A DNA stretch of 64,000 bases. Origin: Podarcis liolepis. Lineage: Eukaryota. The notes beneath the pieces are model-generated. The model had not been told where the DNA came from and ran no database searches. It worked only from the letters and a program-made list of their open reading frames with translations. The translations under genes were made by a program, and so were the position numbers. The DNA lies in NCBI GenBank assembly GCA_965112155.1, contig OZ218102.1. One strand, 5' to 3'. How positions within the stretch are numbered: the first letter of the stretch is position 1; the number at the start of each line of letters is the position of its first letter. Positions 8,041-30,522 of the stretch are shown one piece after another.

Positions 8041-10419
8041 GTATTGCAGTCTCCAATATTGCAAAACCCTCATAAATAGAAAGGTTGGAACAAGATCTTG
8101 TAAGCAAACAATTCCTACTCCAGCAGCTAATTTTCTTCATGCAGAATAATATTCTGCTTTATACTTCAGATCTATACAGTATAAGCACCTGACATACAAT
8201 GTTATCAGCCCTGTGCATCACTTTATGTGGCACCTCACAGCTCTGGTTTTCTAACAGAAGAGTGTAAGGGGCAAAAGCTGGTGAAAGGACTAGATGCCAC
8301 CGATCTTCTCAAAGGTGCTAAATAAAAGCTGTTTCCAGCCTTACTTCACAATTGGCAGCACTAATGACAGCTGACATTTTAAATATGGAGAAGGGATTGG
8401 GGTGAGTACGCAACATTATTGCCTGTCCCAAACAGCATGGAGAATGGAAAAACGTAAGCAATTATTGATTATGAATGAGAACAGACAGGAATGGATTTTA
8501 AACTGTACTGCATTGTGCTGTGAACCACAAGTGCTAAACCACAGCCGAGCATCTTAAGAAAGCAGAATAAGTCAGACAATCTACATCTCCAGCCTAAATA
8601 CAGAAAGTTTACTTTTAAGCAAGTATGCCCAGGGCTTAGAGCTGTGGGCTCACTTAATTTGTTTCTAAGCTTCCGAGGCCATGTGCCATATTCCCATTTT
8701 GAAACTGCGGTAGTCATTAAGAGCATGAGCTATGAACCGGAAAGTCCCCAGATCAAATCACAGCTCAGCCAGCTCAACTCACTAGGTGGCCTTAGGCAAG
8801 CCTCTCTCTCTCAGCTTCACCCCTCATCAGTAATAGGGGAATAAGACTTCTAGCCCAACTTACAGGGTTGATGGCATTACTGAGAATGTATCCGAGCACT
8901 TGGAGGAAAGCAGGACTGTTGGCTTTTATCCAAAGAAATATGATTTGTAGTACTTTAAAAACAGTATTACATTTCTCAAATATTATTTTTAGCCAGGTTT
9001 TTTAAAATCCCTTAAAAATCAAGTATACCACAACAAATATATGATTGGTTCTACTATCTTCACAATGTCTGCAGTATTCTTAACATGGAAATATGTCGTA
9101 CAGCATTCCAGCTGAGGAAATCTGGTCTGTACACCCTATTATTCACAGCTTACACCCTACTATTCACAACTTAATGCTGACCCATCCCAAGATCACTCTG
9201 CAGGTCCACAGGCAGACTTTTGAACCCAGGCCCCACAGATTTCACATCCAGAAATCTTTCAGCTTAATCTTTTTCTGCTAGCAAACCTGTTTCAAACCAC
9301 ACAAATTTTGCAAAAAGTTGTATCAGAATCAAGTTTGCAGCCACAGATGGTAACATCTGAATTCATCTAACAATGGAGATTAAGACGTTTCACAATGATG
9401 ACTCATAGTATTTGTATTTATAATAAACACTTCTAGACATAGTCACATGTCAAATGATGCAAAATAAACACTGTACTTCCATTCACTAAATTCCCCCCCC
9501 CTTTCTTGGCTATTTGACTATTCATCTGGGTTCATCTGCATTCTGTTTATCCCACATAGTCCAGTTTGACAGCTTGTTCTCATTTAGACAGACCTGTAAA
9601 TACTTAATCTACTTTGAATTATTCTACCCATCCTAAATACAGGCTGCCACAATTGGGCTCCATTTGCTTGTGTAAGCGTACTATGAAATTGGCAGTTACC
9701 AGGCCGTCAAGCCCATATTTAGAGTGGAATTTTCAACCGTACAACGAACAAATACACATTCATGCGACAGCATTTTTTGCAGAGTGAAAGAGGTCCTACC
9801 CAGTCCCCAGGCTCCAAGTCTTCACTACCCCACAATAAAAAAGTGCCCTGCTTTTTCAATTCCTCACAGATCCCTGGGTCTACCTCTACCGGTGCCCACC
9901 CTAGATGCCACCCTCGAAATGCTGCCATCTATTCTCCAGCAGGTTCTCCCAGCCTACAGGGGCCCATGAAATACCCTCTTAAGTCGGGTTAGGGGGAGAA
10001 GAGGGAAGCGTTCCAGATGGTGGACTATTCCACTGTGGGGGTTTTCCTATTCCTCAGGGACTCCCTAATTCTCCAGGGATCAAGACCATTATTCACCACC
10101 ACCCATTATGCTTTCAAAATTATTTTGAATCATTTCGATTTGTGGAGGAGGGAGTGGCAGTTGCACACCATATTTCACACTCATACGGTAGAAAAGAAGG
10201 AAACTTTACAGTCCTCAGCTGAATCAAAGCCTTCGTGTGTGCAACTGCTCATATTAATCATTTGTCAGCTAAAGCTCTCCTTCTCCCCTCAATCAAGTTT
10301 AGATTGTAAGGCTCCTTGGGGCAGGGACCTGCCTTTTGCACCTCTCTCTCTGTACGTATAACCAAACTGATGGTGCTATGTTGCCATCTTGGGGGTCCCT
10401 TTGAACAGAAAGGCAGGTT

Positions 10420-12105: not shown

Positions 12106-12859
12106 GGAAAGAAAGGATAGAAAAACTGAGAGAGCCAGTGTGTTGCAGTAGTTAAGGAGTGTCAGACTAGGACCTGGGAGAGAGCAGGGTTCGAATCCCC
12201 ACTCGGCCATGAAGTTCACTGGGTGGCCTTGGATGCCAGCCAGCCACTGCCTCCCTCTGCCCAACCCACCCCCACTGGGTTGTGGTGGGGGTTAACTGAA
12301 GAGGCAGGGAGGGGGGAAAACAATACACACTGCCCTTGAGTCATAGAATCATAGACTTCTAAAGTTGGAAGGGGTCCCGAGGATCATCTAGTCCAACCCC
12401 CCCTGCAACGCAGGAATCTTTTGCCCAACGTGGGGCTCAAACCAATGACCCTGACCCCCGACTGACCTATCATGAAACCCACAGAGGAAAAATATGGGAT
12501 ATATTTGTAATGGCGGATCCTAATCTGTGGTCCAGAGAACAGGTGGAGCCAAATCCAGAATAGCCAGAGACGCATGGGGCGAAGACCTGGGTTCGAGTCC
12601 CGTCCTCCCACTCAGCCATGAAGCTCACTGAGTGTCACGGGGGGGGGGGGAGGCAACCACTGCCTCTCTCAGCCTAGCCCACCTCACAGGGGCGTTGTGG
12701 AGATGGAAGGAGGAGGGCGGGGAGAGGAAACCATGTATGCCCAACGTCGGATTAAAAGGCGGGCTATGAACGCGACCAATGAAGCAGTCCGACCAATAAA
12801 ATAAATAGGTGGAGGGGCGCAAAGGGGGCCGTTTGGGCCAGCGCCCCTGGAGGAGACCC

Positions 12860-14192
12860 TCTTGCCCCCCCTAAACACTGAGGGGAGTGGGGAGCAGCCC
12901 TTGCCCCCCCCAAACACTGAGGGGTGCGGGGAGCACCCCTTGCCCCCCCAAACACTGAGGGGTGTGGGGAGCACCCCTTGCCCCCCCAAACACTGAGGGG
13001 TGTGGGGAGCACCCCTTGCCCCCAAACACTGAGGAATGGGGGGAGCACCCCTTGTCCCGCAAACACTGAGGGGTGGGGGGGAGCACCCTTCCCCCCCAAA
13101 CACTGAGGGGTGTGGGAGTACCCCTTGCCCCCCCAAACACTGAGGGGTGGAGGGAACACCCCTTGCCCCCCCAAACACTGAGGGGTGGAGGGAGCACCCC
13201 TTGTCCCCCCAAACACTGAGGGGTGGAGGGAGCACCCCTTGTCCCACAAACACTGAGGGGTGGGGGAGCACCCTTCTCCCCCCAAACACGGGTGGAGGAA
13301 ACACCCCTTGCCCCCCCAAACACTGAGGAATGGGGGGAGCACCCCTTCCCCCCAAACACTATGGGGTGGGGGAGCACCCCTTGCCCCCAAACACTGAGGG
13401 GTGGGGGGAGCACCCCTTGCCCCCAAACACTGAGAGGTGGGGGAGCACTCTTTGCCCCCCCAAACACTGAGGGGTGGAGGGCGCACCCCTTGCCCCCCAA
13501 ACACTGAGGGGTGGGGGGAGCACCCCTTGCCCCCAAACACTGAGGGGTGGGGGGAGCACCCCTTGCCCCCAAACACTGAGGGGTGGGGGAGCACTCTTTG
13601 CCCCCCCAAACACTGAGGGGTGGAGGGCGCACCCCTTGCCCCCCCAAACACTGAGGAATGGGGGGAGCACCCCTTCCCCCCAAACACTATGGGGTGGGGG
13701 AGCACCCCTTGCCCCCAAACACTGAGGGGTGGGGGGAGCACCCCTTGCCCCCAAACACTGAGGGGTGGGGGAGCACTCTTTGCCCCCCCAAACACTGAGG
13801 GGTGGAGGGCGCACCCCTTGCCCCCCAAACACTGAGGGGTGGGGGGAGCACCCCTTGCCCCCAAACACTGAGGGGTGGGGGGAGCACCCCTTGCCCCCAA
13901 ACACTGAGGGGTGGGGGAGCACTCTTTGCCCCCCCAAACACTGAGGGGTGGAGGGCGCACCCCTTGCCCCCCAAACACTGAGGGGTGGGGTAGCACCCTT
14001 TGCCCCCCCCAAACACAGAGGGGTGGAGGGAACACCCCTTGCCCCCCAAACACTGAGGGTGGGGGGAGCACCCCTTGCGCCCCAAACACTGAGGGGTGGA
14101 GGAGCATCCTTTGCCCCCCCAAAACACTGAGGGGTGGGGGGCGCACCCCTTGTCCCGCAAACACTGAGGGGTGTGGGGCGCACCCCTTGCCC
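12860..14192. repeat. GC-rich minisatellite, ~36-37 bp unit, about 36 copies
   Basis: Unit AAACACTGAGGGGTGGGGGGAGCACCCCTTGCCCCC(C) tandemly repeated with variant units. Confidence 0.97.
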
Positions 14193-14287
14193 CCTCCCGC
14201 CCCCAGAGGCTCTTGGGGGCTCCTCCTCCCATATATTCGGGGGCGCAGCCCTCCCTCCCTGTCCCCCCCCGGTCCCCCTCTCCTCAC

Positions 14288-14594
14288 CGGCCTGCGTGGT
14301 GTCGCTGAGGTCGTGGCTGGCGGCGCTGCCCCGCGGGTAGTCCCTCAGCTTCCTGCCGCTCAGGCTGAGGGCGCCGCTGGCCGCCGCCTCCTCCAGCGCC
14401 CGCTCCAAGGAGCGCGTCCACGACGACGGGCCCGCCGAAGAGGCAGCAGCGCCTCCGCCGCCCCCCGAACCCAGGCCCGCTCCTCCTCCCCCCGGCATGA
14501 GCGCCCCGGAGACCCCGCCGGAGCAGCCGCTGCTTCCTCCGCCCGCGCCGCCGCCGCCGCCCTCCGACGCCGCCGCCAGCACCGCGGCCGCCAT
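14288..14594 (-). CDS. LRCH3: LRCH3 (leucine-rich repeat and calponin homology domain protein 3), coding exon 1; rest of gene lies left of the window
   Basis: MAAAVLAAAS...SWTRSLERALEEAAASGALSLSGRKLRDYPRGSAASHDLSDTTQA matches the LRCH N-terminus. Phase-1 donor G|GTGAG at 14287. Position next to FYTTD1/RUBCN identifies the paralog as LRCH3. Confidence 0.92.
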
Positions 14595-22490: not shown

Positions 22491-23736
22491 AGGCTGATGA
22501 TGGCGACTAGCCATGATGACTATGTTCTCCCTTCTCTGTTGGAGGCCCCCTGCGTCTGAATGCCAGCGGCTGTGAATCACAAGCCTCAGATCCTACTTGC
22601 ATGCTTCCCATTGGGGCATCTGCTTGGCCACTGCGAGAACAGGATGCTGGCCTAGAGGGGCCACTGGCCTGGTCCTGTGAGCTCTTACACTTCTTTCAAA
22701 AAGGTTGCAATTCTGCACAGTCTGTTCCTGTGTGGGAGGCCGCTGTCCCTAAACACACGCATGTGCACATCCTTCAGAGCACTTGGGCACTCTCCTTTTC
22801 TGGAAGAAGCTGCTGTTTCCTCTTAGCAAACAAGTCCAAGAAGGAAGGTAGCTTTATCCAGAATGCAGAAGTAGCCACAGCAAAAAGTCCCCTGTTTTAT
22901 AAGAAAACAAATTAGACTGCAATTTTAAGCTACCAACCATTTGAGTGAAAGAGGCAGGTTGGTAGTCAAGATCAGCAGGAGTTCAGGAACCTTCAGGCTG
23001 AGTTTGGTGGCACTGCTCAGCTTATGGTAAGGCTTTCAACAGTGGAATGGGGTAGGAAGCAATTTTTTTTCTGATTTCCCCCTAACTCCTGCAGCTTCCA
23101 CCCCCCCATAAATCTGCTCTACGGGTTTGGGGGATCTTCCAGAGCAGATGGTGCATCACTCAAATTACTTCCCTCCCTTTTCTTCTTCTGCCATCAGAAG
23201 AAACACTGTTTGATACAACCCCTTCCACATTCTCTACCTACTGACAACTGCCTCCTGCTTCCTTCCCCTTCTTCTTCTGTTGCCTGTCCTGTGGCAAGTG
23301 ATAGATTGTAAGCTCCTAGGGGCAGGGACCTGCTCACTTGTACACCACAAAGCACAATGAAACTACTGATTTCAAAATGGCATTGATTTTTTTATTTCTT
23401 AACATTACTCCACAAGGGTGGGTATGAGGCATCTAGTTAACAGATACATACCAGTTACTGAGCAAAAAACTGCCCATTAAACACTGGACTGCTGATATTC
23501 TTATTCTTATTCCCCACCCATCTAGCTGGTTCTCTCCAGCTGCTCTGGGCTGCTTACAGCACATATTCTACAGATCCGAGAGCAGTCAGAGAAGAAAACA
23601 GGGCATTAAAGACCTCTGCTTTCTACAATGCCCAACCAACCAAGTTTCCTCCTTACAAACGCTCTGTTTCTCACTGCCAGCAGCCCAGTCCCAACCTTCA
23701 TTCAACATTTGGGGATGAGTAGCATACTGTCTGGGC

Positions 23737-24100
23737 GGGACACGGGTGGCGCTGTGGTGTAAACCAGAGCCTAGGGCTTGCCGATCAGAAGGTCGGTGGT
23801 TCAAATCCCCGCGACAGAATGAGCTCCTGTTGCTCGGTCCCTGCTCCTGCCAACCTAGCAGTTCGAAAGCACGTCAAAGTGCAAGTAGATAAATAGGTAT
23901 CGCTCCGGCGGGAAGGTAAACGGTGTTTCCGTGCGCTGCTCTGGTTTTGCCAGAAGCAGCTTAGTCATGCTGGCCACATGACCCAGAAAAACTGTCTGCA
24001 GACAAACGTCGGCTCCCTCGGCCAGTAAAGCGAGATGAGCGCCGCAACCCTAGAGTCGTTCGCGACTGGACTTGACTGTCAGGGGTCCTTTACCTTTTTT
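23737..24100 (+). mobile_element. Sauria SINE, full length
   Basis: Same family; 14-bp TSD TAGCATACTGTCTG (23720-23733 / 24101-24114). Confidence 0.92.
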
Positions 24101-24532
24101 TAGCATACTGTCTGATCTTATGCATGCTTCAGAAATTCAATGGGGCTGCTCCCAAGTAAAAGTGTACGGAGGACATCTACAAAACCTTCCCCACTTGGAA
24201 AGCAAGTGGCAGGCATACAACAGTTTCATTTTCAGAACTGGTGACATACCGTATTATGACAGCGTGTTCAGAATATGAGACCATCCCTGATTTACACTGG
24301 AAGCCCACCCTTTCTGAAGCTCCCTGCCACCACTGCAGCAGGCCACTGCTCCTGCCTCCCAGCTCAGCAACACCCCAAGGCCACCTCCCAAATCAGACAG
24401 ACATCCAGTGCCCTCAATACGCCCCATGAATATTTGGTTGCAGGGGCCAACGGTGGTCTAAAAAGCCACAGTCTCAACACACATGCACTACTGCCTCCAC
24501 AACTGCTCTGCCAAATAAACTGGAACACTTAC

Positions 24533-24594
24533 GGGCGAGTTCTGTTTGTGACCTGGGCGCTTAGGTCATCTTCTGGATGGACTTGGGCCTGCAC
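24533..24594 (-). CDS. FYTTD1: FYTTD1 coding exon 6
   Basis: VQAQVHPEDDLSAQVTNRTR(P); GCAG acceptor, GTAAGT donor; 62 nt. Confidence 0.9.
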
Positions 24595-27226: not shown

Positions 27227-27568
27227 CTGTAAAACATCCACAAAGAATCGTCAGCACAATTGATATTACAGGGTGACGCAACCAGGACAGGCTAGTGCCG
27301 TGCCCCGAGGAGATCACAATCTAAAGCAGGGATGGGACGCATTATGTTCCAGGAAACTTTCCAAGGGCCCTATGCCAGCGGTGGGAGGATCAGGAACAAA
27401 AGCAGATGGAGAGCAATCAATGCTCATTTCCCCACATGCCACTCCCCATCCTCCATTTTTCTAGGCAAGGAAGCAGCACAGTCAGAGTTCGAGCCAAAGG
27501 CAGGCAAAGCACTCAAGGCACATGCAGAGCAGACCACAAGACCTCTGCAAATGGCATATGGCTCTCAC

Positions 27569-27681
27569 CTTCTGTTTAACAAAGTAGGCCTCCTGAGAAT
27601 GGCTCCTTGCTTTCTCTGCAACTCAGATTGTCTTTGGACGGTGGTCTTCCTTTTCAAAACCAAGTAGTCCCGCTGTATGTT
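27569..27681 (-). CDS. FYTTD1: FYTTD1 coding exon 4
   Basis: NIQRDYLVLKRKTTVQRQSELQRKQGAILRRPTLLNR; AAG acceptor, GTGAG donor; 113 nt. Confidence 0.88.
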
Positions 27682-29278
27682 CTTCAGGAAGAGAGATGTT
27701 AAAAAATTAGGTCCACACATTTCCAGCAGTGTTAGTCTGTTGCAGCAAAAAACCCAAGAAGCTGCTTAACTAATAGCACAATCCTAACCATGTCCACTCA
27801 GAAGCAAGCACTGTAGAAATTAATGGTGCTTCCTCCCAGGTGTGCAAAATTAGGACTGCAGCCTCTGTGTGATATTCAACTAGGGTAGAGCCATTACGTT
27901 CACTGACTGCAACAGGTCTACTCAGAGTATGGACAAATGCTAACTCTCATCCAAAAACTGTCTCTGCCACCTGATGCACTACAGATTGTTTCAAACTCTA
28001 TCTGCCACGCTGGCTGGGGCTGATGGGAGCTGTGATCCAACATCTGAAAGGTACCAGGTTCTCTGTTTCGTTAATATATTTATACCCTACCTTTCTTTGA
28101 GATGGCTCACAACGCAAACACAATTAAATTTAAAAACCCTGCAATATCCAAACAGAGCAGCAGAACAAGGGGTAACTTAAAACAGGAGCAATAAAGTTAG
28201 CGAAAAATGCCACCTTCTCCCCTGCCAGCCTACCCCTGCCCCAATATCTGAGAGGGCCCTTCTCTGTGTCCCAAGTATGGTGGATGTTAAGCAGATCGGG
28301 GCCAGAGAAAGAGCCTTCTCTGTGGTGGCGCCTGAACTGCTTATGCCCCACACATACCTATGGCCCTTCATGCGTATATACACATTTCATAAGGCCTGCT
28401 AGAAGTTTTCTCCAGTTGCATTTAGGACATCTCGGCTCCCCATCTGGGCCACTGAAACCTCATTATTTTGAGCAAGGCACCTTTCATAGATAACAAATGG
28501 GCATCTGGATATAGGACTTCTCAGAAAGTCTCTTCTGTTTTGGATGGGGTGAAGTGCAGTCGATGCAACTTTGTGCCTTTATGTTTGGCCACTCAATGTG
28601 CTGTTTCTCTATACTGGGGTGAAGTACGGAAGTTTGTTTCATCTGCCTTTCGAAAATCTGCTTCTGGCCAGCAGAGCTGCTTTAGCATCTCAATCTGCAG
28701 ATCATCTGCTACTAATCTGCTGCCAGGCATGTTGGTTTGGCTGCGACTTTTTACTATTTGTAAACTTCATAAGCTTCCTTGACAAGTGCGGGACGGCATG
28801 GTCAAAGTCCAAAAATAAAAGTGTCGCGTGACACATACTATGTGAACAATTCTCCAAGAGCTTACAAAAGCTGAGGAAAGTGAAAGTCATGCTTAAGTCA
28901 GCCTTGTTAGTCCGAAAGAACTGCTAGGGCACAATATTGCTTTTTCTAGCCCATCTATTCACGCTTGCCATATTACTCATTGGTTGCCTACAACTTAGAG
29001 AACACAGAAATGTCCTGCCTCCCCAACTCCACCTGCCAGGGCAAGGGTCAGAAAAACTCTAGCCCACCAGAGGTGAAATTAGTGGGGACACAACACAGGG
29101 CCTTTCTGACCACACAACAGCCTGGGTTGTTTTATTTTTTTTTGGGGGGGGGTCCTGCTTTTGCTTTGCATTTTTCATTTCTTCCTTCTTTCTATTGGAT
29201 TTTTAATGTTATTTGTTTTGCTGTTTGGCATATGATTGTTTTAAGCCACCTCAAGGGTCCCCTACAGTGCCACGTGTG

Positions 29279-29868
29279 CCAGAAGCAGCTTAGTCGTGCT
29301 GGCCACATGACCCGGAAAAACTGTCTGCGGACAAACGTCGGCTCCCTCGGCCAGTAAAGCGAGATGAGCACCGCAACCCTAGAGTCGTTCGCGACTGGAC
29401 TTGACTGTCAGGGGTCCTTTACCTTCTTTTAGCATACTGTCTGATCTTATGCATGCTTCAGAAATTCAATGGGGCTGCTCCCAAGTAAAAGTGTATGGAG
29501 GACATCTACAAAACCTTCCCCACTTGGAAAGCAAGTGGCAGGCATACAACAGTTTCATTTTCAGAACTGGTGACATACCATATTATGACAGCGTGTTCAG
29601 AATATGAGACCATCCCTGATTTACACTGGAAGCCCACCCTTTCTGAAGCTCCCTGCCACCACTGCAGCAGGCCACTATTCCTGCCTCCCAGCTCAGCAAC
29701 ACCCCAAGGCCACCTCCCAAATCAGACAGACATCCAGTGCCCTCGATACACCCCATGAATATTTGGTTGCAGGGGCCAACGGTGGTCTAAAAAGCCACAG
29801 TCTCAACACACATGCATTACTGCCACCACAACTGCTCTGCCAAATAAACTGGAATAACTGCCAAACAA
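29279..29868. repeat. Inserted duplicate of 23950-24525 (partial Sauria SINE plus unique intron-6 sequence)
   Basis: Constant offset of 5329, no indels, about 13 substitutions in 576 bp by eye; flanked by the 15-bp direct repeat ACAGTGCCACGTGTG. Confidence 0.93.
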
Positions 29869-30376
29869 ACAGTGCCACGTGTGGCTGGGAACCCCTCTGG
29901 TTTCCTGCAGTCTAATCAGGAAGTGAATCTGGGGAGAAGTTGTCCCACTCGGACGGCCCCTTCCCAACTGCAATTTACTGCCAGCAGAGCAAGTGGACCA
30001 CCCAATGCAAAGATCCCCTCCCCCCCCTCCAGGAAAGGAAACTGGCTCTCACCTTTGCCCCTCTGGATTTCCTTTGGCTCAGAAAAAAACCTCCATCATA
30101 GTTTGGTGCAAACCACACACTTTCAGTTGGAAAGAGTAGTCACTTGCCTCAGAGTGTTACTGGAGGTGAGAGCACCTCTGCCCATAGAAAGAGAGCGGAA
30201 TACATGGAAGGGGACCCAATGCAGCTGCTCCATTCATGGATGAAGCCTTGCGCTCTCGGAAAAGGCGGTGCTGAGAGTGAAGGAACTCCACCAGATCCCA
30301 CCTCAAGGCAGAGGCATTCTTACACTGCTGCCCAGAAAAAATGGGTATGTTTTCGCCCCAAAGCCCCCACACATAC

Positions 30377-30522
30377 CTTTTCACTGAGAGGCGATCTGTT
30401 GAGGGGGCTGATGCCTTTGTGAGAGCCCAAGGCTTTCCTTGCCGCTAGCCCGGTTTTGACTCCATAGGGAGGCCTCTTTCCAGCCACCCGTTTTCTGCGT
30501 CCTAAACGGTTCTTTCCAAAAC
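30377..30522 (-). CDS. FYTTD1: FYTTD1 coding exon 3
   Basis: GFGKNRLGRRKRVAGKRPPYGVKTGLAARKALGSHKGISPLNRSPLSEK; TTTCAG acceptor, GTATGT donor; 146 nt. Confidence 0.93.

Follow-up and report, generated by a model that had tools for sequence, protein, structure and literature searches.

How did a piece of one FYTTD1 intron come to lie in another intron of the same gene? When the window (the whole 64,000-nucleotide stretch of Podarcis liolepis DNA analysed here) was compared with itself, 23948–24525 aligned with 29277–29854 at 97.75% identity without a gap. The two copies share one orientation, are offset by 5329 nt from start to start and leave 4752 nt between them. The copy in intron 3, flanked by a target-site duplication (TSD), is a one-off local duplication, and the locus raises the question of which template was copied and what opened the site.

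The copied segment and its alleles

Mapping of homologous proteins onto the window placed nine FYTTD1 exons on the minus strand. With the exon translation as query, 43 of 59 candidate proteins were UAP56-interacting factors, the top one being that of Podarcis muralis (100%). The insertion site is FYTTD1 intron 3 (30376–27682) and the donor is FYTTD1 intron 6, with the following features:

30377–30522, minus strand: FYTTD1 exon 3, upstream of the insertion (protein mapping)
27567–27681, minus strand: FYTTD1 exon 4, downstream of the insertion (protein mapping)
24533–24594, minus strand: FYTTD1 exon 6, 62 nt, outside the copied segment (protein mapping)
24527–24532, minus strand: splice donor GTAAGT of intron 6, outside the copied segment (exon mapping, motif scan)
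23950–24525, plus strand: donor segment, intron 6 positions +8 to +583
23737–24097, plus strand: complete Sauria SINE of the donor locus, bounded by its TSDs at 23720 and 24101; T7 run at 24095
24514–24519, plus strand: AATAAA, antisense to FYTTD1, with 6 nt between it and the last copied base
29264–29278, plus strand: left TSD copy, 15 bp, preceded by T and beginning with A (T/A step); present once where runs X3, X7 and X8 lack the insert
29277–29278, plus strand: TG microhomology, 2 nt, between the TSD end and donor 23948–23949
29279–29854, plus strand: inserted copy of 23950–24525 in FYTTD1 intron 3, 576 nt, gap-free, 13 substitutions
29279–29425, plus strand: 3′ part of the SINE inside the copy, entering the donor's Sauria SINE at about position 214 of 353
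29430–29442, plus strand: 3′ TSD of the donor SINE inside the copy, marking the direction of copying
29855–29868, plus strand: filler, 14 nt, between the copy and the right TSD
29869–29883, plus strand: right TSD copy, 15 bp (window self-comparison, runs)

The next gene downstream, probably LRCH3, has an exon at 14594–14286. One database protein fuses this exon to FYTTD1 exon 3 (14594–14286 plus 30522–30377), an order impossible in the window; the other genome is probably mis-assembled or holds a rearranged copy. A minisatellite of ∼1.35 kb with a unit of 36–38 bp (12848–14194) adjoins a GC-rich first exon.

A sequence-only reading of this DNA had described the copy as gap-free, in the same orientation at an offset of 5329, with about 13 substitutions, and the count is indeed 13 in the 576-nt core: 12 transitions and one transversion. 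Eight of the 13 lie at CpG and a strand pattern is absent, so RNA editing was rejected as their source. The divergence of 2.3% (0.9% excluding CpG sites) suggests an age of a few million years, at the rate implied by Table 2 of PMC13295347. The GT of intron 6 begins at 24532, which places the end of the copy at intron position +8, and exon mapping bore out the earlier statement that the copy stops at 24525, before this GT, without taking in exon sequence. The uncopied continuation beyond the donor end is present in 4/4 runs. On the gene's strand the copy has neither GTRAG nor a poly(A) signal and ends short of the donor motif; nothing points to a function. A hairpin as the cause of the stop was rejected, the predicted folding at the donor end being weaker than that of shuffled sequences (z = +1.79).

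The TSD 15-mer occurs in the window only at 29264 and 29869, and a flush 15-mer would arise by chance at ∼2e-7. Each junction has 2 nt of microhomology (TG left, AC right). The left one lies within SINE sequence and the insert end carries no poly(A) in the window, both as first described. The suggestion that the filler re-copies neighbouring sequence also stood: 29858–29870 matches donor 24508–24520 at 12/13 positions (13/13 with the T allele at 29866 of X3 and X5) and, apart from the copy itself, nothing else in the window at one mismatch, and the nucleotides preceding 29858 correspond to donor 24514–24522 with one A skipped. The filler may thus record two brief re-priming events within the final 18 nt of the donor, ended by the AC microhomology with the TSD start. 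Its order is compatible with synthesis from either end and does not give the direction of synthesis. The 411-nt non-SINE part of the copied segment has two matches in the 1.57-Gb genome among the best candidates scored, both within the window.

Eight of 24 runs, from seven organisms, were compared, all as contigs. The empty site with a single 15-mer, which the sequence-only reading had proposed to seek in related animals, was clean in three of them: in X3 and X7, 29263 is joined to 29869 with the 15 letters fitting both sides, and in X8 both contigs pass from the left flank into 29869. The perfect direct repeat at 29264 and 29869 is thereby a true TSD from staggered cuts, as had been claimed, and filled against empty alleles show a TSD at the target and no deletion. 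The filled allele was found in six of the eight runs, one weakly. Contigs of X1 (29787–29898, zero differences), X5, X6 and X14 bridge its right junction, which is also covered in X3 by a contig other than the empty-site one; X3 thus appears heterozygous. X1 is possibly the assembly's own sample and not independent; the weaker support comes from X4, where the left junction is crossed by only 24 nt and depth is doubled on the insert. An assembly artefact, or what deletions have left of an earlier tandem duplication, would fit the fact that no contig in the eight runs spans the whole insert. Such an origin is extremely improbable given the 13 substitutions between the copies, the right junctions in five runs and the exact empty site in three; it was rejected on the occurrence of empty and filled alleles in independent runs. 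Because three runs show a clean empty site and six the filled allele, the insert is an old presence/absence polymorphism and no artefact.

The donor SINE retains both of its TSDs (23720 and 24101) and the copy has only the 3′ one (29430). This, together with the empty site in other animals, shows that intron 6 was the source and intron 3 the target. At 29866, X3 and X5 have T, and the window, X1, X6 and X14 have C. X5 (T) and X6 (C) share at least five flank variants lacking in the empty-site run X8, and because these variants group the two, C would be at least as parsimonious as T as the ancestral base. The C-allele filler ends in AAACAA, the start of a Bov-B tail, and the same 6 nt match the donor at 5/6; at six bases this likeness is weak evidence.

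Two further observations concern the alleles. In X14, a second allele across 29250–29887 has neither the insert nor the 15-mer, its left flank passing to 29887 through a few other bases; either the insert was removed, or this site underwent a deletion or repair of its own. At 29677–29678, 29750 and 29798, the alleles of donor and copy do not separate cleanly between runs (29798, for instance, is G/C in both), which may reflect gene conversion between the copies or the collapse of similar contigs.

The target site and possible RNA templates

Insertions of the Bov-B LINE and of Sauria SINEs carry a Tn-TA signature, according to the portions of PMC13295347 and PMC6007223 available. We scored the target site against elements in a genome sample of 2.05 Mb (199 stretches plus the window) out of 1574 Mb. 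That Sauria SINEs carry TSDs was correct in the sequence-only reading, whose range of 10–14 bp proved too narrow: TSDs of 7–17 bp flank 106 of 185 SINE 3′ ends, and 12 of those 106 are 15 bp long. Among SINE TSDs of at least 10 bp, the T-A step stands at the primer side in 48/74 and at the far side in 12/74, with 4.8% per position overall; T is found at −13 to −11 in 45–52 of 73 sites, which reproduces the published signature. Bov-B has TSDs at 29/98 3′ ends, a few of these calls being false, with T/A in 22/29 and a length of 11–15 bp (search floor, 11).

The insert's 15-bp TSD is within both length ranges and the T/A step is present at the right junction, not at the left. The T-stretch at −13 to −11 upstream of the right-junction nick is absent, and the upstream score is lower in only 1/73 SINE and 1/29 Bov-B sites. 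Priming at the right junction scores 0.4 bits against the SINE profile (7/73 sites lower) and 0.0 bits against the Bov-B profile (1/29 lower), an equivocal result. Priming at the left junction scores −9.9 bits (0/73 lower) and −5.8 bits (1/29 lower), respectively. Each profile was scored on the very sites from which it was built, so that those sites look somewhat better than they should. Neither TSD end resembles TT/AAAA. A CR1-like family and two TTA-tailed families gave no consistent flush long TSDs, a weak negative in which the calls were mostly distant chance matches. Set against the published Bov-B and Sauria SINE insertions, as far as those sources describe them, the insert is alike in its 15-bp TSD beginning with A after T and in the AAACAA filler end of the C allele; it differs in lacking a T-stretch ∼10 nt upstream, in ending in unique flank, 428 nt beyond the donor SINE and apparently outside a SINE or LINE tail, and in its source only 5 kb away. 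That the nicks came from the Bov-B endonuclease stands at about even odds, the T/A step and the 15 bp fitting and the upstream T-stretch missing.

One way to read this target site is that the Bov-B machinery nicked at T/A and primed the right junction on a plus-strand RNA, arising either from read-through of the SINE or from antisense transcription that ended near the AATAAA. Synthesis would have re-initiated twice and stopped inside the SINE, giving a 5′-truncated 3′ transduction in cis. We consider this unlikely. The T/A step at the TSD start and the TSD length are those of the two families, the SINE is in sense and 5′-truncated with microhomology, the AATAAA lies at 24514, and abortive priming would be natural at initiation. 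Pol III should terminate at the T7 and T4 runs of the copied flank, however, and the end lies only 6 nt beyond the AATAAA with no poly(A) and with the T-stretch at −13 to −11 absent. Of 175 SINE 3′ ends, three had far partners (the FYTTD1 event, an 11-bp match 8 nt off and a Bov-B repeat), so that the other 174 show no convincing transduction. Among the best candidates scored, the genome shows no dispersed copies. Distant transduction is unlikely, in line with the weight that had been placed on the T7 run against 3′ transduction by the SINE. Landing 5 kb from the source would need tethering, and a tethered plus-strand RNA has a very low prior. In a 1.57-Gb genome, random retroposition within 10 kb of the source would have odds of ∼1e-5, a point in favour of repair from nearby DNA.

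The sequence-only reading had favoured the excised FYTTD1 intron or its lariat as template. Here the left break end would have primed on nascent or excised intron-6 RNA; reverse transcriptase would have run 576 nt toward the intron 5′ end and halted at +8, either because U1/U6 occupy the splice site there or because the 2′-5′ link is near; it would then have slipped twice and joined the other end. The insert would then be a germline fossil of cis RNA-templated repair, with synthesis halted at a snRNP-covered 5′ splice site, which we regard as doubtful. U1 pairs over about −3 to +8, the orientation and cis position are consistent, and repeated slipping would suit a blocked template end. RNA-derived patches at breaks are reported in the available part of PMC5110952.

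The target site and the filler speak against an intron template. In classical target-primed reverse transcription the first nick would be that of the left junction, which matches as badly as possible the target profile of the one retroposon system seen here to yield TSDs of this kind. Because that nick is poor and TT/AAAA is absent, the model would require priming at the second nick or reverse transcription by a repair polymerase. Priming would also have been internal, ∼3.2 kb from the intron's 3′ end and on 2 nt. A cDNA derived from a lariat would stop at intron +1 or continue across the branch point into the sequence upstream of it. Here the end is at +8, and the filler resembles the final 18 nt of the donor, with no match to the branch region at up to three mismatches. 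A 7-nt stretch shared by the junction and the 3′ end of the intron might have suggested a crossing of the lariat, but was rejected as chance, its orientation being wrong for cDNA. On the left nick, the filler, the internal priming and the splice-motif count given below, the claim of an excised intron or lariat as template was not supported. Our literature search found no report of a local insertion templated by an intron lariat, which does not imply absence from print; the accessible part of PMC13174262 contains nothing on local intron capture.

The end at +8 and local copies elsewhere in the sample

The copy ends 7 nt from a real splice donor, and positions within 8 nt inside a FYTTD1 donor make up 0.3–0.4% of those within 5–10 kb of the target. 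The +8 end is locally unlikely and a genuine point for an RNA template, and for this reason we keep intron RNA as a slim possibility, one that gains no support beyond that end.

Self-BLAST of the 2.05 Mb gave 46 proximal low-copy pairs and recovered the FYTTD1 event as a control; dropping four LTR pairs left 42 for testing. In 5/42 pairs a GTRAG pointed inward no more than 15 nt from one of the ends, against 3.7 expected from 84 random segments (4/41 without the FYTTD1 event). Donor motifs at copy ends are thus at chance level in a weak, underpowered test, in which many of the 42 pairs belong to duplications that are larger or older, and the four other GTRAG motifs are only donor-like. The enrichment of copy ends at splice sites, which the sequence-only reading had proposed to test, was not apparent in this 2.05-Mb sample at the low power of that count.

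The sample contains no clean TSD-flanked copy besides the FYTTD1 event, and one unascertained case per 2 Mb suggests several hundred per genome. With ∼200,000 splice donors per genome, ∼0.1% of copies would end so close to a donor; several hundred copies would, on this rough estimate, yield roughly one such coincidence per genome by chance. The end beside the splice site is probably chance. Several hundred per genome is in line with the rate of 0.08–0.65 per Mb of transposable element given in the available part of Pace et al. (PMC2671141). A second coincidence, the AATAAA 6 nt before the end (chance, ∼1.6% per 20 nt) together with the sense, 5′-truncated SINE, points toward plus-strand RNA.

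Among the other local copies, L113:3299–3411 derives from L113:2671–2783 (113 bp, 100% identical, 516 bp away) and interrupts a MITE. It is a young repair-mediated duplication, a clean capture without a true TSD, and shows that such copying works in this genome; its apparent 4-bp TSD was rejected on the finding that sibling MITEs already have both GATC copies. L074:7734–7818, from L075:220–305 (85 bp, 97.7%), lies between two tandem SINE fragments only 90.5% alike, and was rejected as a clean TSD case because its 8-bp repeat sits in that fragment pair. L193 was likewise set aside as part of an older, longer duplication.

The sample held further repeats of other kinds. A 120-bp direct repeat (99%; L047:6947–7066 and 9273–9392) flanks 2.2 kb that end in poly(T) and encode a 642-aa ORF; an L1-like element whose TSD is unusually long probably inserted there. 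Two-copy local repeats of 245–380 bp (L067:9078–9457/L068:1615–1994, L153:4576–4869/9209–9507 and L076:1264–1508/L077:6831–7075) have no short TSDs, and some border transposon or CR1-like ends. The four LTR pairs (L145-146, L148, L052-053 and L056-057; 98–100% identity, outer TSDs of 4–5 bp) are recent LTR-element insertions.

Relation to known duplications and a repair model

In the available part of their paper, Pace, Sen, Batzer and Feschotte (2009; PMC2671141) describe 824 human proximal repair-mediated duplications (mean 162, maximum 619 bp) with the donor near the acceptor, no poly(A), microhomology of 2–9 nt and filler of 1–68 nt. A TSD was present at 6/39 examined proximal breakpoints, and microhomology, TSD and filler together at 2/39; the authors tie the rate to LINE endonuclease activity, their proposed source of breaks. 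By the features that this source uses, the FYTTD1 insert exceeds 50 bp and matches only one other genomic place (the two matches of the 411-nt part), its donor lies non-tandem within ∼5 kb, borderline on an ad hoc cut-off, and comparison with the empty site shows no poly(A/T) together with microhomology, TSD and filler. Like the human cases, it is polymorphic and intron-to-intron, with a single donor ∼5 kb off and a length below 620 bp. It differs in coming from a lizard, outside the species of that study as far as the available text goes, in an acceptor not shown to interrupt a transposable element, in its place near the top of the size and distance range, and in still segregating across several related organisms. 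The copy is most likely a member of the proximal repair-mediated class, to judge from its structure; that assignment leaves the type of template aside, as an intronic copy would read identically from DNA or RNA.

Two other kinds of templated insertion fit less well. Class 1 TSIPs need poly(A) and a TTTT/A site, according to the part of PMC5110952 available; here both the TTTT/A site and a poly(A) 10–30 nt after AATAAA, as in class 1 TSIPs and L1-type events, are missing. The insert resembles TSIPs as a templated, single-copy, polymorphic insertion, with a TSD as in class 1 and microhomology plus filler as in class 2. Unlike them it has a local, not a distant, donor, and neither class, as described there, fits fully. 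The L1 'templated insertions' of a preprint seen in part (bioRxiv 10.1101/2024.08.27.596794) are <250 bp, come from within 15 bp of the site and are joined to L1 sequence. They share the copying of local genomic sequence, there by an SDSA-like switch during retrotransposition, whereas the FYTTD1 copy is 576 bp long, comes from 5 kb away and has at most 6 nt of possible LINE tail.

We favour repair synthesis on nearby DNA at a staggered break as the probable means by which intron 3 received 576 bases of intron 6. Nicks at two positions 15 nt from each other would leave 3′ overhangs, one of which would prime on 2 nt in donor DNA 5 kb off; the primed end may have slipped twice before copying 576 nt, and the copied strand would have annealed to the other end on 2 nt, by SDSA or a polymerase-theta-like route. 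Fill-in at the staggered ends would make the TSD. The trigger could plausibly have been a Bov-B nick at which the element's own start was aborted, at about an even chance. Counting against a DNA template are the unexplained end at +8, the AATAAA 6 nt before that end and the start within a sense SINE; the length of 576 nt and the gap of 4752 nt also lie at the upper edge of the published class, most of whose members, in the part of the source available, have no TSD.

On repair from nearby DNA, the FYTTD1 copy is a neutral repair scar, usable as a presence/absence marker common to related wall lizards. With it, the repair-mediated duplication class reaches into squamates, and there is an equivocal hint that nicks made by Bov-B can set such duplications off. 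If intron RNA were the template after all, part of the vertebrate 'DNA-capture' duplications would be RNA-templated, and a genome-wide clustering of copy ends at splice donors would be natural germline evidence that intron RNA serves as a cis repair template.
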